Origin: an uncultured Chloroflexia bacterium | GTDB taxonomy: Bacteria > Chloroflexota > Anaerolineae > DAOTYC01 | Direction: 5' to 3' | Length of the DNA: 64,000 nt | Assembly (NCBI GenBank): GCA_963843645.1 | Contig: CAWJLE010000002.1 | Location: 189,909 to 253,908 of the forward strand | Position numbers and translations under genes: made by a program | Notes under the pieces: generated by a model | The model's database searches: none | What the model saw: only the letters and a program-made list of their open reading frames with translations | What the model was told of the DNA's origin: nothing | Shown: positions 1 to 45,784 of the stretch, piece after piece | Numbering within the stretch: position 1 is the first letter of the stretch | How the letters are laid out: every line of letters starts with the position of its first letter

Positions 1-2
1 TG

Positions 3-194
3 ACGGCGGGGGCGGACGCGGCGAGCGTGACCGTGTACAACAACACGGCGGGCTCGGGGGACAAGGTGTGCGTGCTGAAGGCGGCGGCGGGGACGACGGC
101 GAGCTGGTGCCCGGCGCTGGCGATCGCGTGCGGCGGCGGGCTGTACGCGGCGGTGACCGGGACGACGCCGGACGTGTCGATCGCGTACGTGTGA
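3..194 (+). CDS. hypothetical protein, 3' end (partial; first visible cistron of the co-directional 1-7.7 kb operon)
   Basis: Open frame from the window edge to TGA at ~192-194. Strong third-position G/C bias (gcg/acg/ggg/gtg codons). No start is visible in the window. Confidence 0.4.
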   Translation, partial: TAGADAASVTVYNNTAGSGDKVCVLKAAAGTTASWCPALAIACGGGLYAAVTGTTPDVSIAYV

Positions 195-330
195 GACAGC
201 GGTCAGCTGTCAGCATTCAGCTCTCAGCTGTCAGCAGAAGCCTCACCGGCCGTGAGGGTCGTTGTCATTGCTGATCGCTGATCGCTGACCGCTGAGAGCT
301 GAATGCTGACAGCTGAGTGCTGAGAGCTCG
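190..330. repeat. ~140-nt palindromic intercistronic element (CAGCTGTCAGC / GCTGAGAGCTGAATGCTGAC arms, CCTCACCGGCCGTGAGG apical hairpin), copy A
   Basis: Long perfect stem-loop read directly. An inverted copy lies at 2068-2195. The element is immediately followed by GGGAGG and a start codon. Confidence 0.7.
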
Positions 331-344
331 TCGGGGAGGGTGCG

Positions 345-479
345 GTGAGAGAGCTGGTGTGGGTGGTGGGGTACGCGGTGGTCACGGCGCTGCTGGCGTA
401 TGGACTGGGCAGGCGGCTCCGCCAGGCTGTCCGCCCGGCACAGGCCGCCGGACAGCGTGCGAGGCGGAACGGAGATTGA
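345..479 (+). CDS. small hydrophobic protein (44 aa; one predicted TM helix plus basic tail; holin-like?)
   Basis: GGGAGG RBS 5 nt before GTG. GC3-rich frame translates to VRELVWVVGYAVVTALLAYGLGRRLRQAVRPAQAAGQRARRNGD. Not in the ORF track because of the GTG start. Confidence 0.3.
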   Translation: MRELVWVVGYAVVTALLAYGLGRRLRQAVRPAQAAGQRARRNGD

Positions 480-482
480 GCG

Positions 483-689
483 GTGAAGGTGACGATCGTG
501 CGGTATGGGAAGAAGGTGTCGTTCGGGCACTTCTGCAACGAGGAGGCCCACGTCACGGTGGAAGTAGAGCCGGGCGAAGACGTGATCGCCGCGTTGAACA
601 CAGCCCGGGCGGCGGTCGATGCGACGCTGGCGCAGAGTGAGGCAGAACGGGACGCGGCGTTTGGACTGGATGAAGAGCCGCCGTTCTGA
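483..689 (+). CDS. small hypothetical protein (68 aa)
   Basis: GGAG RBS 6 nt upstream. High GC3 coding frame. Confidence 0.5.
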   Translation: MKVTIVRYGKKVSFGHFCNEEAHVTVEVEPGEDVIAALNTARAAVDATLAQSEAERDAAFGLDEEPPF

Positions 690-766
690 CCAATGGATGT
701 CGGCAATGTGCAGCGACACCGGAACGGTACCGCTGACTGCTGATAGCTGAAAGCTGAGGGCTAACT

Positions 767-2068
767 ATGGCGATGACATTGGCGGCACTGGAAGCGGCGG
801 TGGCGGCGGACCTGGACGACGTGGCGCAGGAGCTGTGGACGACCGGGCAGCTGGAGCGGGCGATCCGGAAAGCGTTGATGCGGTACAGCGAAGTGCGGCC
901 GCAAGTAGTGATGGGGACCGTTGCCTCCGCGGCGACCCGCGAGTACTCGCTGTCGTCGCTGACGGGGTTGGTGGACGTGCTGCGGGTGGAGTGGCCGTGG
1001 GTGCAGGGGGCGGGGATGACGTATCCGCCGCCGTACGTGGATTTCGACGTGCTGGACGACCGGATTTCGATTGCGCTGCGGACGGCGACGTGCCCGAAAG
1101 TGACGGACGCGCCGCTGCGGGTGACATACACGAAGACACACACGCTGTTGGGGTTGGACGGGGCGGCGGGGACGACCGTACCGGCCGAAGACGAAGAGAC
1201 CCTGATCGTGGGGGCGTGCGCCTACGCCGCGATCCAGCGGGCGCGGACCGTCGTCGAGGCCGTCAACCCCAGCGCCGACACCCCGGAGCTGTGGCAGAAG
1301 TGGGGGGAAGCCCGCCTGGCGGAGTTCGAAGCTGAGCTGGCCCGCCTGCAGGCCCGGAAGAGCGCCAAGGGACCCGGACGGACGACCGTCGTCGCGCCGG
1401 CCGGCGACCCGCGAACGCTGGGGTACCTGCGCGACCTGCTGGAGCTGGACCTCAGCGACGTCGAGAACGTGGTGTGGTCCAGCTGGGAGCTGGACCGCGC
1501 CCTGCGCAAAGCCCTGCAGGAGTACAGCGCCGTGCGGCCGCAGGAATACATCTCGACGCTGGCGGCAGCCGACAGCCGCGAGTACGCGCTGACCACGCTG
1601 AACGGGCCGCTGGTGGACGTGCAGCGGGTGTGGTGGCCGTACGACGCCGCGGCGCCCGAATATCCGCCGCAGTGGGTGGAGTTCGAGCTGTGGGACGACA
1701 AGACGATCCTGTTTGTGAAGAGCGATCCGGCGCCGCGGTTGGGGGACAAGCCCCTGCGCATCTTCTACACGAAGGTGCACACCATCGAGGACCTCGACGG
1801 GGCCACGGCGAGCACCTACGGCGCCGAGGACGAAGAAATTCTGCTGGCCGGCGCGGCCGGCTACGCGGCGGCGCAGCGAGCGCGGCAGGCCGGCGCCGAG
1901 TCCGCAGCCAAGTGGACCCGGTGGGGGGACGAGCGGCTGCGGGCCTTCAAAGCCGGCCTGGCGGCGATCGCGCGGCGGATCGAGCGGTACCACGACGCCC
2001 GCGTGGCCATCCAGTGGCCGGACCTGGAGGCCTTCGACGATAAGCACGAAGGCAGCAAGTGGGCGTGA
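767..2068 (+). CDS. hypothetical protein with internal tandem duplication (two homologous ~210-aa repeats)
   Basis: 433-aa ORF. Residues 1-~200 and ~225-430 align (…RALRKAL..YS.VRPQ…REY.L..L.G.LVDV.RV.WP…). Codon choice switches from G-ending to C-ending at ~nt 1260. Confidence 0.7.
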   Translation: MAMTLAALEAAVAADLDDVAQELWTTGQLERAIRKALMRYSEVRPQVVMGTVASAATREYSLSSLTGLVDVLRVEWPWVQGAGMTYPPPYVDFDVLDDRISIALRTATCPKVTDAPLRVTYTKTHTLLGLDGAAGTTVPAEDEETLIVGACAYAAIQRARTVVEAVNPSADTPELWQKWGEARLAEFEAELARLQARKSAKGPGRTTVVAPAGDPRTLGYLRDLLELDLSDVENVVWSSWELDRALRKALQEYSAVRPQEYISTLAAADSREYALTTLNGPLVDVQRVWWPYDAAAPEYPPQWVEFELWDDKTILFVKSDPAPRLGDKPLRIFYTKVHTIEDLDGATASTYGAEDEEILLAGAAGYAAAQRARQAGAESAAKWTRWGDERLRAFKAGLAAIARRIERYHDARVAIQWPDLEAFDDKHEGSKWA

Positions 2069-2195
2069 AGCGGTCAGCGATCAGCGATCAGCGGTCAGCG
2101 ATCAGCAACGACAACGACCCTCACGGCCGGTGAGGCTTCTGCTGACAGCTGAGAGCTGAATGCTGACCGCTGAGAGCTGATCGCTCCTCGGGAGG
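2068..2195. repeat. palindromic intercistronic element, copy B (inverted relative to copy A)
   Basis: Reverse complement matches 190-330 (…CAGCATTCAGCTCTCAGCTGTCAGCAGAAGCCTCACCGGCCGTGAGGGTCGTTGTC…). Followed by GGGAGG and ATG at 2202. Confidence 0.7.
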
Positions 2196-2201
2196 TGGGC
2201 G

Positions 2202-2903
2202 ATGGAGAGTGACGCGGCGGAGTACGGGGTGACCGTGGAGGTCGCGACGGCGGCGGCCGGCGCGAAGTGGCGGTGGGTGGCCACGCGGGTGCACCACCTG
2301 ACGGCGGGCGAGAACAACGGGAATCACAATCTGTACGTCACGCTGCTGGACGAGAACCTGGCGCGGGCGCGGACGCGCACGGCGTGGATCGCCTGGCCGA
2401 CGGAGACCACGTACGAGTACACGATCGAAACGATCCTGCAGGACAAGCCGGAGAATGAGGCGGGCGGCAACGCGCCGCTGTGGAAGCACCAGGTCGTGAG
2501 CTGCGGGGTGAACGTGAACTCGGACGAAGTGAGCGACGTCGTGCGTGGGATCCACACCGAGCATCCGGACGAGCCGCCGGCCACCCCTGGGGGGAACCTG
2601 GGCAACACGCTGTATCACCACTCGTTTCTGGTGGAGTTCACGCGGACGGCGGTAGGCGACCCTGAGCCCACGCCGGACCCGGGCCCGGGCGACGAGGACG
2701 ACGAGGCCTCGGGCGACGAGGACATGCCGGCGTTGGGGGACGTCCCGGAACGGTACTGGGGGTGGATCGAGACGGCGAGCCACGCGCTGAGTCTGGCCAT
2801 GTATCGGCTGAACGTGGTGGTGGCGGCCGGGCCGGCGGTCGGAGACCGGGCGGCGCGAGCGGCGGCCGGCGTCGACGAGGTGCGAAAGGCGTTGACAGGT
2901 TAG
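2202..2903 (+). CDS. hypothetical acidic protein (233 aa)
   Basis: RBS GGGAGG. Uniform G-ending codon usage. Asp/Glu-rich segment PDPGPGDEDDEASGDED. Confidence 0.65.
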   Translation: MESDAAEYGVTVEVATAAAGAKWRWVATRVHHLTAGENNGNHNLYVTLLDENLARARTRTAWIAWPTETTYEYTIETILQDKPENEAGGNAPLWKHQVVSCGVNVNSDEVSDVVRGIHTEHPDEPPATPGGNLGNTLYHHSFLVEFTRTAVGDPEPTPDPGPGDEDDEASGDEDMPALGDVPERYWGWIETASHALSLAMYRLNVVVAAGPAVGDRAARAAAGVDEVRKALTG

Positions 2904-2937
2904 AACGTTGGAACGTTGGAACGTGTGAACGAGGTAG
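2899..2937. repeat. tandem GAACGTTG octamer repeats (AACGTT palindrome cores) upstream of the 2940 gene
   Basis: ttagaacgttggaacgttggaacgtgtgaacgagg read directly. A matching array lies downstream of the gene. Confidence 0.55.
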
Positions 2938-2939
2938 TC

Positions 2940-3926
2940 ATGGGCATACACAAGGGGATCGTGCGGGGGTACGAGGCGGGGACGGGGCTGGTGAGCGTGG
3001 AGCTGGTGGGGAGCCATCCGAGCTTCGTGCAAGTGCCGGCCGGGGCGCACCTGGGGGCGGTGAATCTGGTCGACGGGCGGCGGTGCGCGGTGGTGTTCTT
3101 CGACGAGAGTAACGCGCGGGACGGGCTGGTGGTGGCCACGTACGACGTCGTGGCAGACGCGCACCACACCACGCACGAGAGCGGCGGGGCCGACGAAATC
3201 AGCGTGGCGGGGCTGGCCGGCCAGCTGGCCGAGGCGCAGACGCCCCAAGACTGGACCGCTGCCGGCGAGACCTGGACGTACGCCAGCGCCACGACGGTGA
3301 CCGTAGCCGGCGACGTCACGGGCAAGTACGCCGTGGGCGACAAAGTGCGGCTCAAGCAAGGCGGCGCGTACAAGTACTTCTACGTCGTGAGCGCCACGTA
3401 CAGCGCCCCCAACACCACCCTCACCCTGTACGCCGGCTCGGATTACACCGTGGCCAACGCGGCGATCACCGACCAGGCGTACTCGAAGCTGGCCACGCCC
3501 CAGGGCTTTCCGCACTGGTTCTACTACACGCCCACCTGGACCAGCGGGAGCAACCCGCAGCCGGCCAGTCCCGGCCTGCTGCGCGGCCGCTTCACCCTCA
3601 ACGGCCGACTGTTGTCGTTCGAGTTCGTACTCGTGTACGGACCGTCGACGACCGCGGGCACCGGGCAATGGATCTTTCAGCTGCCGTGGTCCATGGCCGC
3701 GTCGGCCTGGTCGTACGACTGGGCGTACAACTTCCGGGCGCAGATCATCGACGCCGGCACGGGCTACTACTCGCCCGGCCTGTGGGGCTATCCGGCCAGC
3801 GCGGCCACGATCTACGTCATGTTCAACAACTCATTCGGCGTGGGCGGCAACCTCCTGCAGGCCACAGTGCCAATGACCTGGGCCAACGGCGACGTGCTGC
3901 ACGTCAGCGGCGAGTACGAGGTGTGA
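2940..3926 (+). CDS. hypothetical protein (β-rich; possible structural/virion-like protein)
   Basis: ORF track 2916..3926. ATG at 2940 preceded by GAGGTAG. Ser/Thr/Tyr/Gly-rich composition. Codon usage shifts G3→C3 at ~nt 3170. Confidence 0.6.
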   Translation: MGIHKGIVRGYEAGTGLVSVELVGSHPSFVQVPAGAHLGAVNLVDGRRCAVVFFDESNARDGLVVATYDVVADAHHTTHESGGADEISVAGLAGQLAEAQTPQDWTAAGETWTYASATTVTVAGDVTGKYAVGDKVRLKQGGAYKYFYVVSATYSAPNTTLTLYAGSDYTVANAAITDQAYSKLATPQGFPHWFYYTPTWTSGSNPQPASPGLLRGRFTLNGRLLSFEFVLVYGPSTTAGTGQWIFQLPWSMAASAWSYDWAYNFRAQIIDAGTGYYSPGLWGYPASAATIYVMFNNSFGVGGNLLQATVPMTWANGDVLHVSGEYEV

Positions 3927-3927
3927 A

Positions 3928-3975
3928 ACGGGCATTGGAACGTTTGAACGTTTGAACGTTTGAACGTTGGACACC
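3928..3975. repeat. tandem GAACGTTT octamer repeats (4 copies) downstream of the 2940 gene and upstream of the 4024 gene
   Basis: ggaacgtttgaacgtttgaacgtttgaacgttgga read directly. Confidence 0.55.
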
Positions 3976-4023
3976 GCCTGTACGTCTGTCGGTGCAGGAC
4001 GTTGGACTGAGAGGAGCAATGAC

Positions 4024-5223
4024 ATGGGCGAGGCAGCCGAAGGGGCGCGACCGCGGACGGCGGGCGAAGTGTGGGCCGCGGCGAAGGCGGAGCTGGCCGG
4101 GCAAATGACGGGCGCCACGTACGAGCTGTACGTCAGCCGGACGACGGCGGCGGCGCCGGACGCGGACGTCCACGTGGGCGGCGAGCTGGCGGTGGTGGCC
4201 GGCAACGCCCAGGCCGTGGAGTGGCTGGACAAGCGCCTGGGGGCGGTCATCACCCGCACCCTGTGCGGCATCCTGGGCGGCACGGTCAACGTCAGCTACC
4301 AGGTAGCCGCGCCGACGCCGGCGCCGGCCCCCGCCGCGGAACTCGGGCAGCTGGAGCGCGAAGTTCGGGTCGTGGATCGGCGGCGGGGGTTCAGCATCCT
4401 GGAGAACGTCATCGTGGACGAGTACCTGCCGCTGATGGGCTCGACCGTGTTCGCCGTGTACGCCCTGTACAGCCGGCTGGTGAACTACGATCAGGGCTAC
4501 GCCTGGCCCTCGTATCGGACCATCTGCGCCCACCTGCACATCGGGCCGGCGACGCTGGCGGAAGCGAACCAGGTCCTGCAGGTCTTGGGGCTGATCGAAG
4601 TCCGCCCGGGCGACGTGCGGAGCCCCAACGCCTATTACCTGCTCGATGCCGGCGCGATCGACGACGCGCGCCAGGCGGCGATTCTGGCGGCCGCGGCGGC
4701 CTGGGTTCCACCCACGGCGGGGAGCCCGGCCCGCAAGCGCATCGAGGGCGGGCTGAATTCCACCCAGGGCCGGGTCGGCGCGCCGTGGAGCGGCGGCGGG
4801 CGCCCTCGAGGAGATCACAGCACGGCGGAGGGCGCTTCTGATCAGAAGCACCCTGTTACTGACGAGAAGCACCCTGCTTCTAATCAGAAGCACCCTGCTT
4901 CTGGCCCAGAAGCAGAACAAGACAAACAAACAGAACAAACACCAATTGTGGGTCCAGAAACTGTTGTTGTGGATGTGGTTGTGGCCCGCGCTGGCCGCAC
5001 GGACAGTGCGTCCAAAACCGTCGACGACGAAATTTCCGGACACACTCTCCTGGACGAGCTGGTGGCGCTGGGCGTGCAACGGCGGACGGCCCTGGACGCG
5101 GTGATGACGAACGACCGCCGGCGCGTGGCCGGCTGGCTGCGCTACACCCTGGAGCAGGACAACCTCCGCAACCCCGCCGGCTTCCTGCTGAGCATGCTGG
5201 GCACCGGCCGCCAGCCGCCGTAA
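4024..5223 (+). CDS. winged-helix replication-initiator-like protein with an in-frame low-GC 21-nt ×3 tandem-repeat linker
   Basis: ORF 3967..5223. ATG at 4024 after GAGGAG. The segment LPLMGSTVFAVYALYSRLVNYDQGYAWPSYRTICAHLHIGPATLAEANQVLQVLGLIEV resembles initiator/DnaD-type winged helices. Repeats encode (D/E/N)QKHPxx at 4840-4905. Confidence 0.5.
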   Translation: MGEAAEGARPRTAGEVWAAAKAELAGQMTGATYELYVSRTTAAAPDADVHVGGELAVVAGNAQAVEWLDKRLGAVITRTLCGILGGTVNVSYQVAAPTPAPAPAAELGQLEREVRVVDRRRGFSILENVIVDEYLPLMGSTVFAVYALYSRLVNYDQGYAWPSYRTICAHLHIGPATLAEANQVLQVLGLIEVRPGDVRSPNAYYLLDAGAIDDARQAAILAAAAAWVPPTAGSPARKRIEGGLNSTQGRVGAPWSGGGRPRGDHSTAEGASDQKHPVTDEKHPASNQKHPASGPEAEQDKQTEQTPIVGPETVVVDVVVARAGRTDSASKTVDDEISGHTLLDELVALGVQRRTALDAVMTNDRRRVAGWLRYTLEQDNLRNPAGFLLSMLGTGRQPP

Positions 5224-5232
5224 GGGAATCGA

Positions 5233-5339
5233 CCGCAGATGAACGCAGATAAAAGCAGATAAAGACAAGAAACAGAAACGACAAAAAAACAATTGCTTTT
5301 GATCTGTCGTTATCTGTGTTCATCTGCGTTCATCTGCGG
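5233..5339. repeat. AT-rich iteron-like palindromic element (GCAGAT[A/G]AA short repeats in inverted arms around an A-rich spacer)
   Basis: cgcagatgaacgcagataaaagcagataaagacaag … ctgtcgttatctgtgttcatctgcgttcatctgcgg. Related copies at 43555-43650 and 45558-45728. Confidence 0.6.
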
Positions 5340-5374
5340 TTAACTGTCTTTCAGAGACGATTGGGGGTGGGGCA

Positions 5375-7711
5375 TTGAAGGCGTGTTCGGACGAGCTGCT
5401 GGCGGCGATGGCGGGGAAGTCGCTGCAGGCGGAGCTGCAGGTGATCGTCGACGATCGGGCGGTGGGGACACCACGGGCGCGGTGGGAAGACTTCTACAGC
5501 GGGCCGCGGGGCTACGGGCACACCGCGTTTCAGCACATGACCGTGGTGGGCAGCACGCTGTTCGTGGTGGCCTTCGTGAACAGCGCGGGGCAGCTCCTGC
5601 GGCAGAAGCTGAGCGAGGGGACGGCGCCGAACGACGCCTGGTGGCGCACGGCCGGCTCGAACGTCAAGGCCGGCACGCCGATCGCCATGGCGGCGGGGCC
5701 GTACGTGCCGGATGCGTTGGTGTTCTGGGTGGACGCCGACGGGCGGAGTATCAAGTATGCCGACGCCTACACCGACGCCCCCAGCGGCGTCGGGACCACG
5801 GTCGACACCCTGGCGGCCGGGCACACCTGCCTCGGCCTGGCCGCGGTGCGGGTCGACTCCGCGGGGGGCTACGGCATCCGCCTGGCCCTGGTGTACGTCG
5901 ACGGCGCCACCGCCAACGGCAGCGGGGCCGACAAGACCGTCAAGGTCAAGCTGACCGCCGACGGCAGCACCTGGAGCGCCGCCATCGACACCGGCATCCC
6001 GGCCGGCCAAAGCTGCTACGGCGTGGCCGCCCTGAACTACGGCACCACGGCCACCCACGCCGGCCTGCACCTGGTGGTGGCCGGCAAGTACCACGACCTG
6101 GCCCAGGGCGACAACGTCAACGTCTACGCCGTGTCGATCGACGTCGCCGCCAACACCGCCGGCGCGACCTGGCTCGGCTGTCCCCTGCAGGCCAGCAAAG
6201 GGGCCACGGTGAACTGGCGGTACCCGAGCCTCATGCCCGAAACCAGCCTGGACCGCTGCCGCTGCTTTCTGCAGCGCTACGACGGCAGCCTGGCGAGCGA
6301 CAAACGCTGGCGGACCGGCAGCGTCGCCGTGCAGACCCTGGCCGATGGGGCCGTCCTCTTCGGCGACTGGATGCCGTTCGACGCGCGCTGCGCCGTGACC
6401 GTCGGCGTGGGCCGCGTGTGGAACTACCTGTGGTGCCTGTGCGGCGACCACATGTGGCGGGCGCCGTTGTACGACGGCGGCGCCACGTACCGCGTCGACC
6501 TCACCGCCGACGTCGTCGGCCTGCAGCACGCCTACTACGACAACACCCTGTTCCTCGAGGACGTCACCAAAGCCGGCTGGGGTTACCTCATCCTCGACAA
6601 CCATGACAACCGCTATCAGAACCTCGGCCAGAGCGGCAAGTACCAGGCCGTCAAACGCGGCGCCCAGGTCGTCATGAAGGTCGGCTACCGCTGGCGTGAC
6701 CCCGCCACCAGCCAGTGGGTCAGCGAAACCAAGATCCTGCCGCCCATGTGGATCTCGCGGATCATTCAGGTCAACAACCCCGCCGTCAGCACGGCCGGCG
6801 GATTACCGCGGCTGAGCGTGCAGGGCGCGCCCAGCCTGGGCGGCTCGTTCATCGTCCTCAGCCTGTACGACGGGTGGGCCATCACCACCCACCGCCTGGC
6901 CAAGTACTACTTCGGGTGGGACAGTGCCCGGCCGCGCAGCGTCCTGCAGGACGCCTTCCTGACCGGCATGGGGTTCACCTACAGCGACGACGGCACGGCG
7001 GCCCTCGGCGTGGCCGAGACCGGCGTCGTGCGGCAGACCCTGCAGGGCAAGCCCTACTGGGCCATGATCAAAGACATCCTCAACACCGTCGGCTGCCGCA
7101 TGAAGTTCTACACCGAAGACGACGAAGAGGCCACCAGCCCCACCGTGCGGGTCCACGTCTTCACCACCACAGCCGCGGACCAGGCCGACGCCGCGTATGG
7201 CGACACCGGCGAGCCCCGCCTGTACGCCAGTATCTACTGGGAGCAAGACCGGGCCAGCTGGCTGCGGTGGATGTGGTGGTACCAGGTCGTCGAGGACGCC
7301 GCGGCCGCGATCGCGTCGGCCGGCTCGCCCCTGGTGGGCGCCCCGATCACCGGCGCGCGGGTCGAGGGCAAAGACGTCGCGGCGGAGTACATCGCCTTCG
7401 ACGAAGTCGAGCGCCTCGGGCTCTACCAGCCGATGACCATCCTCGACGACAACATCACCACGGCCGAGGCCGCCGAAGCGCGGGCCGCGTTCGCGGCCTC
7501 GCAGGCGGTGCAAGGCATGCAGAGCGGCTGCATCCTCGTGCCCGTGCATCCGGGCTTGGAGCTGTGGGACCGCATCGAGATCACCGACGCGAAGGCCTGC
7601 TTCAACCCGATGAGCCGGCGGGTCGCCGGCGTCGAAACGTTTTATGACAAGCGGGGTAAGCGCTGCCAGTACGAGCAGGTGGTGTATCTGTGGGGACTGG
7701 AGCCGTGGTGA
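5375..7711 (+). CDS. large hypothetical protein (778 aa)
   Basis: Long ORF with consistent GC3. TTG/alternative start per ORF track. No recognisable catalytic motif. G3-type codons in the first ~100 codons, C3-type thereafter. Confidence 0.7.
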   Translation: MKACSDELLAAMAGKSLQAELQVIVDDRAVGTPRARWEDFYSGPRGYGHTAFQHMTVVGSTLFVVAFVNSAGQLLRQKLSEGTAPNDAWWRTAGSNVKAGTPIAMAAGPYVPDALVFWVDADGRSIKYADAYTDAPSGVGTTVDTLAAGHTCLGLAAVRVDSAGGYGIRLALVYVDGATANGSGADKTVKVKLTADGSTWSAAIDTGIPAGQSCYGVAALNYGTTATHAGLHLVVAGKYHDLAQGDNVNVYAVSIDVAANTAGATWLGCPLQASKGATVNWRYPSLMPETSLDRCRCFLQRYDGSLASDKRWRTGSVAVQTLADGAVLFGDWMPFDARCAVTVGVGRVWNYLWCLCGDHMWRAPLYDGGATYRVDLTADVVGLQHAYYDNTLFLEDVTKAGWGYLILDNHDNRYQNLGQSGKYQAVKRGAQVVMKVGYRWRDPATSQWVSETKILPPMWISRIIQVNNPAVSTAGGLPRLSVQGAPSLGGSFIVLSLYDGWAITTHRLAKYYFGWDSARPRSVLQDAFLTGMGFTYSDDGTAALGVAETGVVRQTLQGKPYWAMIKDILNTVGCRMKFYTEDDEEATSPTVRVHVFTTTAADQADAAYGDTGEPRLYASIYWEQDRASWLRWMWWYQVVEDAAAAIASAGSPLVGAPITGARVEGKDVAAEYIAFDEVERLGLYQPMTILDDNITTAEAAEARAAFAASQAVQGMQSGCILVPVHPGLELWDRIEITDAKACFNPMSRRVAGVETFYDKRGKRCQYEQVVYLWGLEPW

Positions 7712-7721: not shown

Positions 7722-7800
7722 TTCTCTCTTGGAGGCGCAACGATTTCGGAGTATACTAACTGGATTCATAAGCCAACGGTTGAATGCGAAATCCGGAATC
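7722..7800 (+). promoter_or_regulatory. conserved promoter plus structured leader, copy 1 (TTGGAG-17-TATACT, then GATTTCGGAGTATACT…AAGCCAACGGTTG…GCGAAATC)
   Basis: About 80 nt nearly identical to 29996-30076. Contains a σ70-like -35/-10 with 17-nt spacer and a GATTTCG/CGAAATC inverted repeat. Confidence 0.45.
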
Positions 7801-8030
7801 GACGTGTTCGGCAAAGAGGGACGAGGTACTACCACTTCTGGAGACTGGCGGCGTCTCCGGGAACGAGCACTGTGTGGTCACGATCGTGTCTCCAGAAGCC
7901 CCGCGCATGGGGATAAAGCTTCATCGAATACCAACAGAAGTCGGTGAAGCAAAGAAGGTCCGACGAATTGGCCCGGGAATCGCCATCGTGCAAACAACAT
8001 GCCGAGTCTGACTTTCTCTACGGGAGGGGG

Positions 8031-8723
8031 ATGCAAGCCAGAATGGACAACGAACGCCTGACACAGAAGAAACAGCAGCGCTATGATTTCCTCAAGAAGC
8101 TCTACGATAAGACGGACGGAAAAGATCTTGTTCCCGTAAACTTCGACGGGTTCGCGGAAGAACTGGGTTTGAACAAAGAAGCCACACGTGACGTCATCCA
8201 GTACCTAAAGGGTGAAGGCTTAGTGAGGCAGCACACCCAAGAACTGGTGAGCATTACGCACGCGGGAGTTCTCGAGGTCGAGGAGACGATGGAGCATCCA
8301 GATAGGCCGACGTCCCATTTTCCGCCCGGTGTCAACATCCTGCATATCGAGACCGTGAAAGACTCGCAAATACAACAGGGGACCTTCGCCTCGTCGCCCC
8401 AAATCCAATTCCGTGATGACGAGATATCAAGAGCCTTTGCCAGCCTATTACAACAGGTTGAGTCGTTGGCAGAAGGACCAGACAAGCGTGACGCCAAACA
8501 TGCGGTGGAGATGCTTGAAGAAGAGGCACGCAAAGGCACACACGCTCATGAAGGAACCGTGCGGAGGTGGCTCAATTTCCTTCTCGAAACTGCCCCAGCC
8601 GCCGGGGAAGTCGCGGTGACCACCTTCATCAATCCAATTGCCGGAGTGGCTAAAGTATTCCAGAAGGTAGCAGAGAAGGCGAAACAGGAAAGAGAACAAG
8701 GCGCCCATCATGGCCCGAACTGA
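8031..8723 (+). CDS. winged-helix (wHTH) DNA-binding protein with uncharacterised C-terminal domain; first gene of the low-GC island
   Basis: ATG after GGGAGGGGG RBS. N-terminus (KKLYDKTDGKDLVPVNFDGFAEELGLNKEATRDVIQYLKGEGLV) is a typical wHTH. GC ~50% vs ~68% in flanks. Confidence 0.65.
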   Translation: MQARMDNERLTQKKQQRYDFLKKLYDKTDGKDLVPVNFDGFAEELGLNKEATRDVIQYLKGEGLVRQHTQELVSITHAGVLEVEETMEHPDRPTSHFPPGVNILHIETVKDSQIQQGTFASSPQIQFRDDEISRAFASLLQQVESLAEGPDKRDAKHAVEMLEEEARKGTHAHEGTVRRWLNFLLETAPAAGEVAVTTFINPIAGVAKVFQKVAEKAKQEREQGAHHGPN

Positions 8724-8771
8724 GCATCCTGCGAAGAACCTCGCCACTGGAAACCTCAGCGGAGGCGACAG

Positions 8772-9719
8772 ATGAGCGACAAGCAGAACGATGATATCCT
8801 GCAGTCCACGACGCCCAAACCTTTTGTGTTCGTCTTGATGCCCTTTGATCGGTCATTTGACGACATTTACAAGTTCGGAATTAAGGGCGCAGCGGAGCAA
8901 GTTGGAGCCTATGCAGAGCGGGTAGACGAGCAGATCTTCACTGAAGGTATTCTCGACAGGATCTTCAGCGAGATCAACAAGGCTGATGTAGTGGTTGCAG
9001 ATATGACAGGGCGAAATCCCAACGTGTTCTACGAGGTCGGCTATGCCCACGCTCTGGGCAAGATCGTGCTGCTGGTGACAAGAGACGCCAACGACATTCC
9101 CTTTGATCTTCAGCACCAACAGCACACGGTCTATGGCGGGAGCATCGACACATTGAAGAGCGAGCTGGCTAGAAAGCTGCGCTGGGCAATTACCAATCCG
9201 AAGGCAAGATCAGCCGACGTCGTCGTCACTCTGCAGTTCTCGCGACTCGATTCACGCCCGCCCAAAGCGTATATACTTGAGGTGCATATAGCGAATGATG
9301 GGCTTGAGACCATAGAACGCTTCAGTCTGCAGATTGAAGCCCCGCACTATCAACCCAGTAGGGAACCAAAGAATGTCCGTACAGCCGATCTGAGTCTTAG
9401 AGACCATGCTCTTGACCGCTGTGAGACTGAGTTTCTCTCGTTCCCAGACTCGACAAGGACGTCTTTGAAAATGACTTATTGGTCTCCGCATCCTCTCCTG
9501 CCTGGGCAGCGGATCTCGTTAACCAGCAAATTCCGCTACGGACTCGAGTTCCGTGGATTCGACAAGGCCCAGGTCCTCGAGTGGTTCAGAGTCACGTCAA
9601 GCCTAGACAACTCCAAGTTGTCTTGGTCTCTCTATTGTGATCGCCGACCTTCCACAAACGGGCAGCTTTCACTTTCCGAACTATTCGAGGCCGAGCCGTC
9701 GACCTCGGTGTGGCTCTAG
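8772..9719 (+). CDS. nucleoside 2-deoxyribosyltransferase-like / TIR-like (SLOG-superfamily) N-glycosidase-motif protein with unknown ~170-aa C-terminal domain
   Basis: FVFVLMPFD…ADVVVADMTGRNPNVFYEVGYAHALGKIVLLV matches the NDT/DNPH1-type motif (β1-Asp; catalytic Glu in the E-x-G-Y-A motif). GGAGG RBS. Low GC. Confidence 0.65.
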   Translation: MSDKQNDDILQSTTPKPFVFVLMPFDRSFDDIYKFGIKGAAEQVGAYAERVDEQIFTEGILDRIFSEINKADVVVADMTGRNPNVFYEVGYAHALGKIVLLVTRDANDIPFDLQHQQHTVYGGSIDTLKSELARKLRWAITNPKARSADVVVTLQFSRLDSRPPKAYILEVHIANDGLETIERFSLQIEAPHYQPSREPKNVRTADLSLRDHALDRCETEFLSFPDSTRTSLKMTYWSPHPLLPGQRISLTSKFRYGLEFRGFDKAQVLEWFRVTSSLDNSKLSWSLYCDRRPSTNGQLSLSELFEAEPSTSVWL

Positions 9720-10037
9720 TGCGCCCTCATGGGTTCTCGGATCCCGCCTTCGCCATGGCTGTTTCGACGACGTGATCACATTAACCTGATGTGGCCGACT
9801 CATGACATGGGCTCGACTTGTGGATCGCTCAGATGTCGCAGATGTGTGTGAATCCGTGGTGCCGCAACTGGGGCGAAGCAAGCAGAAAAGACGTGTCCTC
9901 GCGGTGCAGCGCAGCCGCGCCTAGAGCTGAGGCCGGGGCAATTGTTGCCGTTTCGAGCGGACAGTGTTCCTGAACGAGGGCCAGTCTCAGTGTCGCCGGA
10001 CGATGCCCGCCACGCCAGCCCGAAAGGGAGATAAGCC

Positions 10038-10988
10038 ATGACAGACTGCGATGCCCCGCCCAACTCGTATGATCGATTTTATGAGCACAATCGCGACACC
10101 TTTGGAGAGTACATGCCAAAGGAAAAGCTGATGGATGCTCTCTACTATCATTTTCTTCCATCTCAATTCGCGATAGATGATCTTGCAAAGCAGAGGATCA
10201 AGGTTAGTACAATAGACACTCTTAATGACCCGTTTGAAATGAACCCCTATATGCGATGCGATGACGACATAAGGCCGGAGTATCGCGAGGAGCGCAGCAG
10301 AATTTGTGACAATTACGGTCTCTTGTGTTTTTGCCATGACTGGCGCGAAACGCTTCTGTGGTCGTACTATGCCGACAAGCACAGAGGCATTGCAATAGGC
10401 TTTGATATTCCATCGGATGACGTGATAGAAGTTTGCTACACCCTCAACCCGACAAGGCAACGAGTTGAGCTGACGGATAACCCAAGAGAGGTCGAGAAGC
10501 AATTCCTAGATTTGGCCAAGGTCAAGTACGGAGAGTGGATGCACGAGAGAGAAGCCAGAGTACTAGTCGAACGGAAAGACTGGAAGGATGAACCAGTTGA
10601 CAAGTGTGGGAAGCAGGCCCTTTACCGCTTCCGCCATTTTGACAATAGGCTACAAGTGAAGGCTATAGTGTTGGGCTGTAGGTTTCCCTATTCGAAAGCA
10701 TGGGAGGACATACTGCGAGAAGCCAAGAAGCTGGAGGCTTGGATTGTTCCTACACGAGAGGCCTGGGAAGGCTACAAGATACGTCTACGCAACCGCAAGG
10801 CCAAACCCGGCACATCAGAGTGTCCGTCCGGCAGTCCATCGGCGTCTGGATCCCCCAGTTCTAGCGCCTCCCCGTCGGAGTGTACGTTTCTCAGTCCGTC
10901 GGCCTCTCCATCTGCCGGTCCCAGCGCCTCCCCGTCTGCGTCCGCATCTCCCAGTCTCAGTGCGGATGAAGATATGCCAAACGATTGA
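10038..10988 (+). CDS. DUF2971-family protein with C-terminal Ser/Pro-rich low-complexity tail
   Basis: Signature motifs LNDPFE and LLCFCHDWRETLLWSYYADKHRGIAIGF match the DUF2971 hallmarks (NDPxE; MWshYAd.hkG). Tail PSGSPSASGSPSSSASPS… is encoded by imperfect ~60-nt repeats. Confidence 0.75.
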   Translation: MTDCDAPPNSYDRFYEHNRDTFGEYMPKEKLMDALYYHFLPSQFAIDDLAKQRIKVSTIDTLNDPFEMNPYMRCDDDIRPEYREERSRICDNYGLLCFCHDWRETLLWSYYADKHRGIAIGFDIPSDDVIEVCYTLNPTRQRVELTDNPREVEKQFLDLAKVKYGEWMHEREARVLVERKDWKDEPVDKCGKQALYRFRHFDNRLQVKAIVLGCRFPYSKAWEDILREAKKLEAWIVPTREAWEGYKIRLRNRKAKPGTSECPSGSPSASGSPSSSASPSECTFLSPSASPSAGPSASPSASASPSLSADEDMPND

Positions 10989-11175
10989 TGTCCTGACAAA
11001 GAAATCATTACGGCAGCGGCGCAGCTTCCCGCTTGTTGCCTGCGACCGGCCATTGGCCAACAGAACGACAAGTTGCTGACCCCCAAACTGCAGGGTGAGC
11101 AGCCGAAGTATCCGTACGGCACGGAGATGACGTTCAAGCAGGCGCAGCGTTGCTATTCTGGAAGTGTGGAGAGCG

Positions 11176-12012
11176 ATGACTGTGCGTGCGCTCGTGGAGG
11201 AGAACAGTGCCATGACCAGAAGGGAGCAAAAGGAAGAGGAGTTGGTTGTCTTCAATGAACTGAAGGCCATCGTTCCGCACTTCCCCACTGCAGAGCAGAG
11301 TGAGTGTCCTGATTTCTTGGCGGAGACTAGCGCTGGGACTCTTGGCATCGAACTCGAGTGCTACATACGAAAACAAAACCCGGGCGCATCTGACGACGAT
11401 AATCCACGTCAGTACGATCAGTTTCGAAAACAGGTTCAAGCCGAGACTCAAGCCAAGTTTGAACGAATGTGCCACCCTCCCGTTTTGGCCACCTTCTTTT
11501 GGTTCTCGTATGACCTGATTCAGAGTAGGAAAAAAACCAACCCGACATGGTATCGAACAAGACCCGCGGAGTTGGCGTCCCAAGCCGCCGATCTGATGTG
11601 TCGCTCTTTGTCCGGGCTTGGCCCGGAAGTAAACCGGATAAGGATCCCACACGTCGAAATGCCGCAATCTCTTCGAGGTTATCTTCACTGCATTGATATG
11701 TGGATCTGGCCGGGTTTGGAACGCACTGAGTGGTCCGCGGTCGATTCTGGTCGGGTGACCGTGGCACCTCAGGAACTGGAGAGACTTATTGCATATAAAG
11801 ACCAAGCGAAGCTCAATGAGTATCTGAAACACTGCCAGTCGTGCTGGTTGGTGATCTACGCAGACGGCAAGCACATCTCCTCCACTGCCTTAATCAGCCC
11901 CGAACTTCCGGCTTACAGATTCAACACGCGTTTCTCGAGGGTATTGTTCTACTATGATCGTTATGAGCACCGTTACCTCGACCTTCTCATAGGGAATCGC
12001 GGTAGTTCCTGA
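11176..12012 (+). CDS. hypothetical protein (last gene of the low-GC island; weak PD-x(n)-ExE nuclease-like motif)
   Basis: ORF 11164..12012. ATG at 11176 after GGAGAG. Low-GC codon usage. PDFLAETSAGTLGIELECYIRK is only weakly nuclease-like. Confidence 0.55.
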   Translation: MTVRALVEENSAMTRREQKEEELVVFNELKAIVPHFPTAEQSECPDFLAETSAGTLGIELECYIRKQNPGASDDDNPRQYDQFRKQVQAETQAKFERMCHPPVLATFFWFSYDLIQSRKKTNPTWYRTRPAELASQAADLMCRSLSGLGPEVNRIRIPHVEMPQSLRGYLHCIDMWIWPGLERTEWSAVDSGRVTVAPQELERLIAYKDQAKLNEYLKHCQSCWLVIYADGKHISSTALISPELPAYRFNTRFSRVLFYYDRYEHRYLDLLIGNRGSS

Positions 12013-12205
12013 ACCCTTCGATCCGGTGAGCAATTCCAAGCTCGGCAAAGACCTGCGGGCCTCCTGCCCGAGTGCCTTCGTTTCTGCTCTAATCCTCGTC
12101 CGGCAACATGATCGTGATCACCGGCTCGCCGGCGTCTCCAGGGCCGCACACGGCCTTAAGGGTGATGAGCTGAGTGCGGTTCCCGACGCGCGGGTGGGTC
12201 GTCCA

Positions 12206-12283
12206 CGAATAATGGCCGCGAATACACGAATAGCGCTCACTGGAGAGGTCGTTATTCGTGTATTCGTGGCCGTTATTCGCGGA
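12206..12283. promoter_or_regulatory. 27-bp inverted repeat (CGAATAATGGCCGCGAATACACGAATA … TATTCGTGTATTCGTGGCCGTTATTCG) upstream of phzF
   Basis: Near-perfect inverted repeat separated by ~22 nt, ~75 nt upstream of the PhzF start. Confidence 0.4.
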
Positions 12284-12358
12284 TGGCCCCCCGCGGGCTT
12301 GCCTTCGCGCCGCAGATATGCTAGAGTCCCGACATCCTGGCGAATAGCGGAGGCGAAT

Positions 12359-14641: not shown

Positions 14642-14785
14642 GGTACTGGGGCGACCAAGGTCGCGTCTGGATTACGAAGCCCGCCTCCGCGGGCTACGGC
14701 AACAGGAAGAACGGTCCTTCTGTCGCCGCAGCCCGCGGAGGCGGGCTTCGTAGTCCAGACGCGACCTTGGTCGCCCCGTACCGCC
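14642..14785. repeat. MITE-like palindromic repeat, family P1 (…GGTCGCGTCTGGATTACGAAGCCCGCCTCCGCGGGCTA… hairpin)
   Basis: ~145-bp near-perfect palindrome. Other copies at 55170-55325 and 63621-63775. Spurious ORFs translate it as …RSRLDYEARLRGL…. Confidence 0.75.
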
Positions 14786-15769: not shown

Positions 15770-16030
15770 GCCCTTCGCCGTCGCGCCGCCGCCCCTCGCC
15801 GTCGCACCGCCGCCCCTCGCTGTCGCGCCGCCGCCCCCGAATACTGTCACCCTGAGGAAGCGCCGTATGCGACCGAAGGGTCTCGCGCGCGAAAGACGAG
15901 CCCGTCTAGGTCGACCAAAAGGGCTCGTCTCTCGCGCGCGAGACCCTTCGGTCGCATACGACGCTCCCTCAGGGTGACAGTAATCGAGGGCGGCGGTGCG
16001 CGACGAGGGGCGGCGGTGCGACGGCGCGAC
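15770..16030. repeat. composite palindromic repeat, family P2 core (GTCACCCTGAGGAAGCGCCGTATGCGACCGAAGGGTCTCGCGCGCGA…) flanked by inverted 21-bp tandem repeats
   Basis: Core hairpin 15846-15981. Left arm has 3× CGCCGCCCCTCGCCGTCGCGC; right arm has their reverse complements. Related copies at 27228-27410 and 63361-63520. Confidence 0.7.
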
Positions 16031-21132: not shown

Positions 21133-21478
21133 AACCAATCCTCCTTGGAAGAGACGAGCGCTTCCACTCGGGGTGGGCCGGGCTGAGCGGCGCCAGGGGG
21201 ACCGATCGACGAAGGACGGGTACTTCCCAATCGCAGGGTGGCGGTCACGACGTAGGGGAGGGTGGCGAGGGATGGCGGCTGTCATCGTGCACGTCGTTCC
21301 TGTGAATTCACGTATATACCGCTTCATTATATTGGCGTTCGCCGATGCGCGGCTATGACGCGCGTCACCCGCGCGCGCCTCGAGGGTGCGGCACCGAGAG
21401 CCGCACCCTCCGGGCCGAACGCCGGGGGGCTACGGTCTCGCCCATAGTCGGATTCACCCGACGCTCGGCAACCTGACT

Positions 21479-21640
21479 CCTACCCACTTTGCTCACTCAG
21501 CCGCCGCAGACCTCTCTCCCGGCCTCTCCCCTGCAAAGGGAGAGGAGAACGTCAACCGATTTGCTCCTCTCCCTTTGCAGGGGAGAGGCCGGGAGAGAGG
21601 TCTGCGGCGGCTGAGTGAGCAAAGTGGGTAGGAGTCAGCT
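21479..21640. repeat. MITE-like palindromic repeat, family P3 (…CTCTCCCGGCCTCTCCCCTGCAAAGGGAGAGGAGAAC… hairpin)
   Basis: ~160-bp near-perfect palindrome. Other copies at 58546-58700 and 60492-60592. Confidence 0.75.
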
Positions 21641-24569: not shown

Positions 24570-25825
24570 TGGCGGCCTGAGGATTTTATCCTCAGGCTCA
24601 CGTGCCAAAGCCTGCTGAAGCAGGCTGCAACACGGCGGACGAGCCAGCCTGGGCGATTTTAGAGATTAGCGCGGAAGTGAGACGCTGGCCGGCTTCGGAC
24701 CGCACCGTGGCCGGGCGTGAACCCCGACATCCGCGGGGCGGGTGCTTCCGTGTCATTCTGCCAGCCTGCTTCAGCAGGCTGCGACACGGCGGACGAGCCA
24801 GCTTGGGCGATTTAAGAGATTAGCGCGGAAGTGCGTCGCGTGCGTCTCAAGGCAAGCTGCAATGAGCCGAACGAGCGGCCGTGAGACGCTAACCGGCTTG
24901 GCGGCCCGCCCGGCGATGAAGTCGCCGGGCTACACAACAGCGTCCGATGAATCGGACTTTCGGCTGCTCTGAATTCCGATTCATCGGACGCTGTCATGTA
25001 GCCCGGCGACTTTATCGCCGGGCGGGCGTCTTCGGATCGCACGGTGGCCGGGCGTCTTCGGATCGCACCGTGGCCGGGCGCCTTCGGACTGCACCGTGGC
25101 CGGCGTGAACCCCGACATCCGCGGGGCGGGTACCTCCGCGTCATTCTGCCAGCCCGCTTCAGCAGGTTGCGACACGGCGGACGAGCCAGCTTGGGCGATT
25201 TAAGAGATTAGCGCGGAAGTGCATCGTGTGCGTCTCGAGGCAAGCTGCAATGAGCCGAACGAGCGGCCGTGAGACGCTAACCGGCTTGGCGGCCCGCCCG
25301 GCGACGGAACGTGTCGCCGGGCGAGCGTCTTCGGACTGCACCGTGGCCGGGCGCCTTCGGACCGCACCGCGGCCGGGCGTCTTCGGACTGCACCGCGGCC
25401 GGGCGTCTTCGGACCGCACCGTGGTCGGCGTGAACCCTCCCATCCGCGGGGCGGGTACCTCCGCGTCATTCTGCAACCTGCTTCAGCAGGCTGCAACACG
25501 ATGGACGAGCCTGCCTAGGCGATTTAAGACATTGGCGCGGAAGTGAGTCGCGTGCGTCTCGAGGCAAGCTGCAATGAGCTGAACGAGCGGCCGTGAGACG
25601 CTAACCGGCTTGGCGGCCCGACCGGCGAAAAGTCGCCGGGCGGGCGTCTTCGGACTGCACCGTGGCCGGGCGCCTTCGGATCGCACCGTGGCCGGGCGTC
25701 TTCGGACTGCACCGCGGCCGGGCGTGAACCCCGACGTCCGCGGGGCGGGTACCTCCGCGTCATTCTGCCAGCCTGCTTCAGCAGGCTTTCGCTCCGTAGC
25801 CTGAGGATTTATCCTCAGGTCCCGA
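24570..25825. repeat. 1.27-kb non-coding array of nested palindromic and tandem repeats (4-5 degenerate higher-order units, each with a CCTGCT(TCA/GAA)GCAGG hairpin, a conserved ~60-nt segment, 28-bp tandem sub-repeats and palindromes), bounded by CCTGAGGAT(T)TTATCCTCAGG palindromes
   Basis: Repeated strings read directly at ~24612, 24767, 25155, 25469 and 25771. 28-bp units CGTCTTCGGA(C/T)(T/C)GCACCGTGGCCGGGCG ×3 per unit. All overlapping ORFs merely translate repeats. Confidence 0.7.
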
Positions 25826-27222: not shown

Positions 27223-27227
27223 GCGGG

Positions 27228-43527: not shown

Positions 43528-43554
43528 CCTCCTTTTATGCGAGCCGGAATGTCT

Positions 43555-43650: not shown

Positions 43651-43663
43651 ACGAAACCAGCCC

Positions 43664-45728: not shown

Positions 45729-45784
45729 CGTCGTTCAGGGCTGCGAATGGGGCAGGCGGCACATAGGGGCCGCCTGCCCCTCTT

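Follow-up and report, generated by a model that had tools for sequence, protein, structure and literature searches.

Three palindromic repeats of an uncultured Chloroflexia bacterium are probable members of a widespread, horizontally spreading class of tandem-armed hairpins

The closest described counterparts of hairpins whose arms are built of short tandem repeats are the intervening sequences (IVSs) of 23S ribosomal RNA (rRNA), found in Coxiella, Leptospira, Salmonella and other bacteria. The Coxiella IVS has a 28-bp stem with tandem GACAGAT heptamers that vary in number by strain, carries an open reading frame (ORF) in its loop, and is cleaved by RNase III in vitro (PMC4990558). Here, we analyze three palindromic elements (copies 1, 2 and 3) in a 64-kb stretch of contig CAWJLE010000002.1 from an uncultured Chloroflexia bacterium, hereafter the window (the whole 64,000 nt that were analyzed). 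We propose that the three loci are probably ORF-less members of a very widespread and horizontally spreading class, which we term tandem-armed hairpin cassettes. Like these hairpins, 23S IVSs possess a long terminal inverted repeat that forms a duplex of approximately 28 bp and, possibly, a small loop ORF, and the Coxiella heptamer GACAGAT is close to the CGCAGAT, CACAGAT and ACAGGAT units of the hairpins described here. Additionally, IVSs are sporadic and probably horizontally acquired, with no target-site duplication (TSD) reported (PMC4990558). Distinct from the present hairpins, which lie between protein genes and are ORF-less or, elsewhere, carry a GxxExxY gene, IVSs reside in helices 9, 25 or 45 of the 23S rRNA, RNase III excision has been shown for them, and some carry an ORF for S23p, a four-helix-bundle protein.

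Several other systems resemble the window hairpins in part. The repetitive extragenic palindromic (REP) sequences of Proteobacteria, together with bacterial interspersed mosaic elements (BIMEs) and REP doublets forming hairpins (REPINs), are extragenic palindromes dispersed in many copies, often located in operons, the sugar ABC operon with malE–malF being the classic case, and can stabilize upstream mRNA; the REP hairpin in E. coli malE–malF was reportedly described by Newbury et al. in 1987. However, REPs are imperfect palindromes of 20–40 nt with a GTAG head, are mobilized by the REP-associated tyrosine transposase (RAYT, of the Y1 type), and each of their families belongs to one lineage, whereas the hairpins here combine tandem-unit arms and an AACC cap with a sequence shared across phyla and a PD-(D/E)XK nuclease ORF. 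Miniature inverted-repeat transposable elements (MITEs), such as Correia, Nezha and RUP, are likewise small, ORF-less, bounded by terminal inverted repeats, located between genes and strain-polymorphic, yet they stem from transposase-encoding insertion sequences and make TSDs. No TSD was found for the hairpins here, and we know of no transposase parent for them. The Foldback (FB) transposons of Drosophila, which Truett, Jones and Potter are said to have described in 1981, also have long inverted repeats made of short tandem repeats, a variable loop sometimes with ORFs, and many arms-only copies, but they are eukaryotic and kilobase-sized, and the likeness is one of analogy only, with no homology implied. 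The attC sites of integrons are imperfect palindromes of 60–140 nt beside small cassette ORFs, with ends of the form ...AAC / GTT...; unlike the hairpins here, they have stems that are not tandem repeats and an R' core GTTRRRY from which the present ends depart (GGTTAC, GGTTCC and GGTTTC are common instead), and the present hairpins come without cassette arrays or an integrase. Finally, the heptamers of the cyanobacterial short tandemly repeated repetitive (STRR) sequences are already known. Like the arms analyzed here, these heptamers and the TAACTGA repeats consist of tandem 7–10-nt intergenic units, often right upstream of start codons, with a unit common to distant phyla; the TAACTGA repeats were reported as occurring across phyla with "no mechanism evident" (MacGregor 2015; PMC4679880). 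Unlike the arms analyzed here, both are described as direct repeats, with one inverted set only, and no link to a hairpin or an enclosed gene has been reported (PMC4679880).

In the window, copy 1 (5232–5340) comprises two 36-nt arms (5232–5267 and 5305–5340; 89% complementary) and an A/T-rich apex of 37 nt (5268–5304). Copy 2 (43554–43651) has 31-nt arms (43554–43584 and 43621–43651; 90% complementary), a loop of 36 nt and the cap TAACCGCC...GGCGGTTA. Copy 3 (about 45558–45725) has arms at about 45558–45618 and at 45673–45725, which pair over about 28 nt ungapped and further if bulges are allowed, around a GC-rich centre of 54 nt (45619–45672). None of the three is assigned to a strand. Tandem Repeats Finder returns a period of 10 for copy 1 (CGCAGATAAA / ATCTGCGTTC) and a period of 9 for copy 3 (ACAGGATGC / ATCCTGTCC); the arms of copy 2 also have a period of 10. 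Specifically, copies 1 and 2 have in common a capped arm of 10-nt units, (T)AACCGCMGATGAACGCRGAT, also written (T)AACCGCMGATGAACGCRGATRRA, and for the same family AACCGCAGATGAAC and AACCGCAGATGAACGCAGAT are further written forms; the inverted cap and units match on all four arms with no mismatch, so written, and we refer to these two copies as the CGCAGATGAA family. The 19-nt arm motif matches the window eight times, where 0.29 matches would be expected. The inner repeat units are more degenerate than the outer ones. Copy 3 shares with copy 1 the 11-mer GATAAAGACAA and the architecture, and the CGCAGATGAA-family arm motif finds no match in it even with up to three mismatches allowed; because it is built of the 9-nt unit ACAGGATNN around a GC-rich centre despite the same architecture, we assign it to a sister family.

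The folding of all three elements is far more stable than that of shuffled sequence. On the transcribed strand, the predicted RNA folds have energies of −54.8, −56.6 and −77.9 kcal/mol for copies 1, 2 and 3 (z scores of −9.95, −10.3 and −5.7), none of 200 shuffles being as stable, and the DNA folds of copies 1 and 2 likewise fall well outside the shuffled range. Pairing is uninterrupted up to the first internal loop over 20 bp in copy 1 and 17 bp in copy 2. The initial annotation of this DNA, made from the letters alone, had described three palindromic elements at essentially these positions, with arms of short direct repeats in inverted arrangement, and both points agree with the folds and periods above. 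It had further placed an A/T-rich centre in all three, which fits copies 1 and 2 (28–30% GC) but not copy 3 (65% GC), and had called them AT-rich for a genome of 68% GC; the elements are indeed low in GC (39%, 42% and 49%), but against a background of 63.8% over the window. Its grouping of the three into one family applies to copies 1 and 2 alone, copy 3 being the sister family, and the class itself is larger, with further hairpins at 197–328, 2069–2185 and 12193–12292.

The arm of copies 1 and 2 extends far beyond this genome. Species-representative genomes (596 Gb) were scanned with the motif ACCGCMGATGAACGCRGAT, a pattern worth approximately 18 bases, which gave at least 144 occurrences at no fewer than 120 genome loci, against an estimated chance expectation of about 17 in 596 Gb. 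For 86 of the 144 occurrences listed, an inverted partner lies within 1.5 kb, which is not expected by chance, and among these listed matches the paired occurrences collapse to 72–76 distinct elements, with stems mostly of 19–46 bp that are 89% Watson–Crick paired and with total lengths from 44 to about 500 nt. Going by the record titles, the hosts listed comprise about a dozen bacterial phyla as well as archaea. They include Cyanobacteria (among them isolates of Microcoleus, Dolichospermum and Scytonema), Planctomycetota, Verrucomicrobiota, Acidobacteriota, several proteobacterial classes (including the isolate Wenzhouxiangella limi), Bacteroidota/Rhodothermales, NC10, Latescibacterota, Armatimonadota, Desulfobacterales, Anaerolineales of the Chloroflexota, a lineage of the candidate phyla radiation (CPR), and, within the archaea, five independent metagenome-assembled genomes (MAGs) of Methanoperedens and another archaeal MAG. 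The GC content of the listed loci ranges from 39 to 72%. Viral sequences contain the arm motif as well, in 22 contigs. At least four full hairpins, one per intergenic gap, are present in each of two phages, and in other phages a solo arm leads straight into an ORF, the frame being open from an ATG within the unit. The arm is almost unchanged across phyla, archaea and phages, a distribution that implies horizontal spread.

The architecture is not tied to one repeat unit. Arrays of the copy 3 unit ACAGGATNN came up, without having been sought, in the 1.6 Mb of fetched loci, namely in a cyanobacterium, an archaeal MAG, Anaerolineales, Verrucomicrobiota and a phage, and many other unit sequences build the same hairpin type in these loci, with periods across the class of 6–10 nt. 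No motif hairpin lies inside an rRNA gene of the fetched loci; these loci lack conserved rRNA motifs, except for a single 11-mer match (L006) that looks like chance. According to a rough ORF heuristic, no ORF of 120 aa or more spans 53 of 64 short elements, and their neighbour genes are convergent in 19 cases, tandem in 25 and divergent in 5; the rarity of divergent neighbours places the elements at gene ends. Where larger loops are ORF-less, they hold other hairpin elements, nested within them (L038, L094, L097, L057 and L126). As a separate observation, a Wenzhouxiangellaceae chromosome (L014, 5430–6570) contains at least three head-to-tail CGCAGATGAA hairpin elements of 214 nt with a period of 309 nt, from which it follows that the element can also amplify in tandem.

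Elements of 400–500 nt enclose an ORF of approximately 125 aa. A profile built from three of these enclosed ORFs had five matches in the 120 loci listed, all five inside motif hairpins, and the encoded products are GxxExxY proteins (TIGR04256, E about 1e-43; PF13366, PDDEXK_3, of the PD-(D/E)XK type). All five begin with MN(A/T)D, which is encoded by the arm unit ATGAACGCAGAT (MNAD), the ATG lying within the arm; the 10-nt arm period makes an ATG available in each reading frame. One of the hosts (L102) belongs to the Anaerolineales, the same phylum as the window host, and its arm is, by eye, very like that of copy 2. The window copies, with centres of 36–54 nt, contain no ORF, and we regard them as "empty" members of the class because their centres hold no ORF while five of five GxxExxY ORFs elsewhere sit in hairpins. 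The PDDEXK_3 family is recorded as of "function unknown", with multiple transfers among Bacteria, Archaea and viruses (PMC3424549). For GxxExxY we found no solved structure and no PHROG family.

Because this first sample had been selected by the motif, a second one was chosen by protein instead, and comprises one viral and eight plasmid GxxExxY loci. Four of these nine are bracketed by tandem-armed inverted repeats, with the units CACAGAGG, CACAGAGA, CGCGAAGG and a fourth given as CGCAAAAG or AACCGCAAAAGACGCGAAAAG; only this fourth one is capped AACCGC. Of the remainder, one has a short single-unit inverted repeat, and each of the other four has at least one flank with tandem or direct repeats. 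Several of the protein-chosen genes lie between genes unrelated to them in function, for example between fabD and fabG, radA and a gene for a FAD-dependent protein, and ade and a mannose-1-phosphate guanylyltransferase gene. In two plasmids, of Prevotella and Fusobacteria (L234 and L236), the GxxExxY gene is flanked by repeats of about 45–70 nt that are direct, not inverted; here the upstream leader may have been duplicated at insertion, which may be a clue to how the cassettes integrate.

Copies 2 and 3 lie within a minus-strand, sugar-type ABC operon, as the initial annotation had recognized. The order of this operon is the periplasmic sugar-binding protein (SBP) gene (Peripla_BP_4; 45862–46872), a gap of 357 nt occupied by copy 3, the ABC ATPase gene (approximately 44740–45504, with its ATG at 45504 and AAGGAGAGGG just before it), the ABC permease gene (BPD_transp_2; 43664–44689, whose likely start gives 341 aa, as in relatives), a gap of 145 nt with copy 2, and a URO-D-family gene (42412–43518, with its ATG at 43518). 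The homologues of the URO-D protein indicate a host among the Chloroflexota, of the Anaerolineae type. In the direction of the minus strand, copy 2 begins 12 nt past the permease stop codon and ends approximately 20 nt ahead of the AAGGAGG ribosome-binding site of the URO-D gene. Between the end of the SBP gene and copy 3, the gap also holds a GC-rich hairpin without a T-tail (45757–45787; GGGGCAGGCGGC...GCCGCCTGCCCC) and repeated, operator-looking palindromic AACTTCCGAAGTTT motifs (45790–45855); together with copy 3, these make it a stack of three structured elements. A second set of AACTTCCGAAGTTT motifs is located at 61678–61742, upstream of a minus-strand gene ending at about 61664.

Comparison of the operon junctions among relatives reveals that these sites are polymorphic. 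Each of the four closest relatives has a hairpin in the permease–URO-D gap, with differing sequences. Specifically, L227 and L226, whose permeases are 95.6% and 93.8% identical in amino acids and whose DNA is nearly identical at the 3' end of the permease gene, carry a heptamer-armed hairpin (ACGTRAT / TRATRCG) in this gap, and the palindrome of L228 (URO-D 86% identical) is GC-rich and lacks a tandem-repeat structure. L134, L135 and L126 (69–73% identical) have CGCRGATGAA hairpins at the same junction, in L126 with a CACGGATG hairpin nested inside, and the metagenomic L155 has a hairpin of the unit CACGAATA, the same as that of the window hairpin at 12193–12292. Hairpins of other units are located at the operon junction of L153, L169 and L203, and tandem-armed hairpins in the SBP–ATPase gap of L156 and L167. 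L121 and L123 have no long hairpin, and in many other relatives the gaps are only 0–25 nt. Occupancy is thus sporadic and sequence turnover fast, and the position, past the stop codon and before the ribosome-binding site, is recurrent. The initial annotation had named insertion polymorphism as a feature to look for, and among the operon relatives it takes the form both of presence or absence and of replacement.

In the strict sense, the three copies probably fall outside the described element types. Membership among the MITEs is rejected, since there is no TSD and the sole ORF in full-length copies encodes a 125-aa PD-(D/E)XK protein and no transposase. With regard to REP and REPIN features, the head is AACC and not GTAG, and no RAYT occurs among the 18 window ORFs scanned against Pfam. 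The initial label of a mobile, REP- or MITE-like family therefore stands as far as dispersal, intergenic location, polymorphism and horizontal spread are concerned, but neither a TSD nor a transposase parent accompanies it. An attC site is rejected as well: the left end of copy 2 reads GTCTAAC, but its right end reads GTTACGA, the right flank in the family usually has GGTT and then C, T or A, and there is no array. By location, the copies are not 23S IVSs, lying between protein-coding genes and not in helix 9, 25 or 45; across the window, Rfam returned nothing at gathering score, so no rRNA gene was detected, and with a relaxed E-value cutoff the only matches, far below threshold, were to generic models of miRNA-precursor hairpins. 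The arms of copies 1 and 2, at 36 and 31 nt with the paired runs given above, do form a terminal duplex comparable to the 20–28 bp or more expected of an IVS. DnaA-box and Dam-site readings were dropped on account of consensus misfit.

Across the 72 elements, the boundary is conserved as A|ACCGC...GCGGT|T, with mixed bases after it and no T-run after the stem. The two arms co-vary modestly, with 82 double-change cells against 52 ± 7 in shuffles, 82 being reached in none of 500; in each element the pattern had picked out one of the arms, and arms inherited together would produce such a signal too. The conservation of the arm sequence across phyla points to sequence-specific recognition, as expected if the element is recognized by its own protein.

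A number of observations weigh against a mobile, nuclease-associated origin of the window copies. An insertion scar is missing: at five boundary offsets in the 72 elements, direct repeats of 3 nt occurred in 0–2 of 72 and those of 4–5 nt in 0–2 of 72, and 2-mers were at about chance, so that neither a TSD nor any other scar of insertion was found. No GxxExxY gene occurs in the 64-kb window or in the 83 related operon loci, and no remnant of one was found in the short loops, so that the derivation of an empty copy from a full copy is a hypothesis. Among the relatives, no empty site with alignable flanks was found; the close relatives differ over the whole gap, making homologous exchange of the flanking DNA as possible as transposition. 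In four Microcoleus loci (L007, L090, L110 and L061; approximately 88–95% identical), one orthologous CGCAGATGAA copy has the same decayed 3' arm, which implies vertical persistence across approximately 8–10% nucleotide divergence and slow decay, not recent movement. Additionally, the stem mismatches have no G·U preference, neither overall (56 G·T, 67 A·C and 85 others) nor on the predicted transcript strand in 22 co-directional cases (17 G·U against 23 A·C), and they therefore give no sign of selection on the RNA duplex. Most genome matches are MAGs, and single taxon labels may be wrong; the overall breadth of hosts cannot be explained as a binning artefact.

The absence of wobble bias also bears on an explanation of a different kind, in which the hairpins are REP-like intercistronic RNA elements selected by the host, determining how stable the SBP, ATPase/permease and URO-D segments of the mRNA are relative to one another or how they are processed, with spread being secondary. 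The placement of copy 2 exactly between a stop codon and a ribosome-binding site, that of copy 1 at 9 nt past a stop, the high stability of the duplexes and the retention of some permease–URO-D hairpin in all four closest relatives despite differing sequences would all be expected of such elements, and copy 3 follows the SBP gene, as the REP hairpin reportedly does in E. coli malE–malF. We nevertheless consider this explanation unlikely, because occupancy is sporadic, with the gaps of many relatives being 0–25 nt or unstructured (z > −2), because the mismatches have no G·U bias, and because a purely structural role leaves the 20-nt conservation of the arm across phyla unexplained. A role as intrinsic terminators, which the initial annotation had also raised, with action in both directions, would suit strong hairpins located downstream of genes, often between convergent neighbours, and in some family members an upstream A-run and a downstream T-run extend the palindrome. 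However, no T-tract follows the stem in any of the three window copies, consensus scans detected neither a terminator-like nor a promoter-like site at any of them, the family flank ...A|ACCGC...GCGGT|T continues in mixed bases, copies 2 and 3 are internal to an operon and are closely followed by ribosome-binding sites, and AT-rich stems of approximately 30 bp are atypical of terminators; the three copies were accordingly rejected as intrinsic terminators, and this role is highly improbable.

Could the hairpins have formed where they now lie, through slippage during replication together with hairpin-templated correction, so that no mobile element was involved and the likeness between genomes is convergent? 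The variable unit number among Coxiella strains, the greater degeneracy of inner over outer units, the existence of many unrelated unit sequences and the co-variation of the arms would agree with such a process. Convergence, however, cannot explain a cap and arm of 19–30 nt shared by hosts of 39–72% GC, nor the constant association of this arm with one protein family, whose gene phylogeny has already been suggested to be incongruent with that of the hosts (PMC3424549), and we regard formation in place as very unlikely. Operator arrays, that is, binding sites for a DNA-binding regulator of the host, are favoured by the 10-bp period of copies 1 and 2, which sets the units on one helix face, and by the palindromic arrangement near gene starts, but the periods of the class range from 6 to 10 nt, the same sequence is found in archaea, CPR bacteria and phages, which share no regulators, and copy 2 lies between cistrons at a place with no promoter-like site; this leaves operators with scarcely any probability. 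As for copy 1, it might be all or part of the replication origin of an integrated element spanning 1–7711, with iterons and an AT-rich unwinding region bound by an O-like initiator. It starts 9 nt past an ORF matching "replication initiation O-like" families and combines repeated 10-mers with a centre of 30% GC, yet its arm sequence is also found within the ABC operon (copy 2) and at no fewer than 120 unrelated loci in many phyla, and a better candidate for a lambda-type origin, with replicon-specific repeats at 4834–4914, lies inside the initiator gene itself (4834–4984). An origin function for copy 1 is thus extremely improbable, and an iteron-type origin was rejected because the repeats recur at 43554–43651 and across phyla and are not specific to a replicon; the initial annotation, too, had preferred a dispersed palindromic family to a unique origin.

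We therefore retain the reading of the three copies as ORF-less tandem-armed hairpin cassettes. Each element has a stem of 30–36 bp assembled from tandem units of 7–10 nt, capped (T)AACC...GGTT(A) in the copy 1/2 family; the loop is free to vary, and in all instances observed the ORF-bearing, full-length copies of this family carry the GxxExxY nuclease gene of approximately 125 aa. In the mechanism that we propose, the elements would spread horizontally by means of this nuclease, with phages as likely vehicles; they occupy gaps between genes, including those within operons, nest in one another's loops and replace each other over short evolutionary distances. Empty copies such as those in the window would be non-autonomous or ORF-deleted relatives of the cassettes, and palindrome-stimulated deletion is a plausible route by which the ORF may have been lost. 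Being palindromic, an element would give the same RNA whichever direction it is transcribed. In an operon transcript, it would place a near-perfect duplex of at least 20 bp exactly between a stop codon and the next ribosome-binding site, and the expected outcome would be not termination but RNase III cleavage, or protection of the ends of the cistrons on either side. Such processing is expected because the 23S IVSs with tandem-heptamer stems are its best experimental precedent.

Copy 1 lies in a part of the window with features of its own. The upstream ORF (3967–5223, plus strand; stop codon 5221–5223) encodes the putative lambda O-like replication initiator, with matches to phrog_391 (8e-6) and phrog_270 (1e-4) and a weak HTH_36 match, and the next ORF, starting at 5375 or 5383, begins approximately 35 nt beyond copy 1. 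Inside the initiator ORF, a 21-nt repeat that contains the perfect palindrome GCTTCTGATCAGAAGC in each copy occurs 3.8 times (4834–4914), and a low-GC block with A-rich and T-rich stretches (4916–4984) follows, still within the ORF; judged from its sequence, 4834–4984 is a putative lambda-type origin signature inside its initiator gene. Since this block lies within an O-like initiator gene, it suggests that an integrated phage or plasmid has its replication module at 1–7711. No relatives of the O-like initiator were found in viral contigs. Beside this module, the region 7733–12000 contains many low-GC patches (42–47% per 60-nt window), and its ORFs match only PHROG families of unknown function; for these reasons, it may be a foreign island.

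Besides copies 1–3, the window contains at least three more tandem-armed hairpins, and inverted-repeat axes with arms of at least 25 nt number 27 in all, against none in ten shuffles. The three additional hairpins, none with an assigned strand, are located at 197–328 (heptamer unit TCAGCNN / GCTGANN), at 2069–2185 (heptamer unit AGCGRTC / GCTGANN) and at 12193–12292 (octamer-like unit CACGAATA). Those at 197–328 and 2069–2185 flank the ORF 767–2068, and the loop of one is the exact reverse complement of the loop of the other; either recombination between the arms may have inverted the loop, or the element may have entered the two sites in opposite orientations. In the module 1–7711, a short-tandem-repeat motif is present in each of the intergenic gaps examined, and in several of them a solo, one-arm array ends just upstream of an ORF start: 739–757 (five GCTGANN units) before the start at 767, 2899–2931 (three GTTGGAAC units) before that at 2916, and 3938–3968 (four GAACGTTT units) before that at 3967. 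These solo arrays are like the STRR and TAACTGA repeats, and in their position resemble the TAACTGA arrays before Beggiatoaceae start codons as well as the solo CGCAGATGAA arms that precede phage ORFs.

At least four further families in the window consist of long, GC-rich, nested palindromes with arms of up to 121 nt. Their members are located at 14648–14777, 55162–55334 and 63550–63946; at 15824–16000, 27226–27410 and 63337–63544; at 21473–21638, 58547–58691 and 60492–60584; and at 24904–25027 and 29842–29967. The outer arms of 63550–63946 are tandem 34-nt units, two on one side and five on the other, and the centres of these palindromes often read ...ACGACAACGA... or TTGTCAA. Adjoining the palindrome at 24904–25027, the segment 25023–25725 comprises 2.2 copies of a 324-nt unit with blocks of the 26-nt sub-repeat CGGGCGTCTTCGGAYCGCACCGTGGC.

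rRNA IVSs, STRR heptamers, the cross-phylum TAACTGA repeats and transfers of PDDEXK_3 are already known. For the CGCAGATGAA hairpin, for a cross-domain tandem-armed class and for its link to GxxExxY, we found no description in the searchable literature, coverage of which was incomplete. Tentatively, we raise the further possibility, itself doubtful, that tandem-armed hairpins form one unrecognized cross-domain class of mobile or self-propagating cassettes, whose autonomous members encode small proteins that recognize or cut a hairpin or cruciform built of repeats, namely the GxxExxY nuclease and perhaps the four-helix bundle S23p; 23S IVSs, STRR and TAACTGA arrays and empty intercistronic hairpins would then be products of the same phage-spread mechanism. 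An arm of 20–30 nt that is conserved from cyanobacteria to Methanoperedens and phages, in hosts of 39–72% GC, is unusual for non-coding DNA and points to a sequence-specific propagation machinery. For GxxExxY/PDDEXK_3, a large family without a known function, the hairpins provide a defined candidate nucleic-acid partner. The class links three old puzzles, namely the origin of rRNA IVSs, the cross-phylum occurrence of short tandem repeats, and palindromes within operons. In genome annotation, the elements account for spurious "MNADERR..." N-termini and mark probable RNA-processing sites inside operons.

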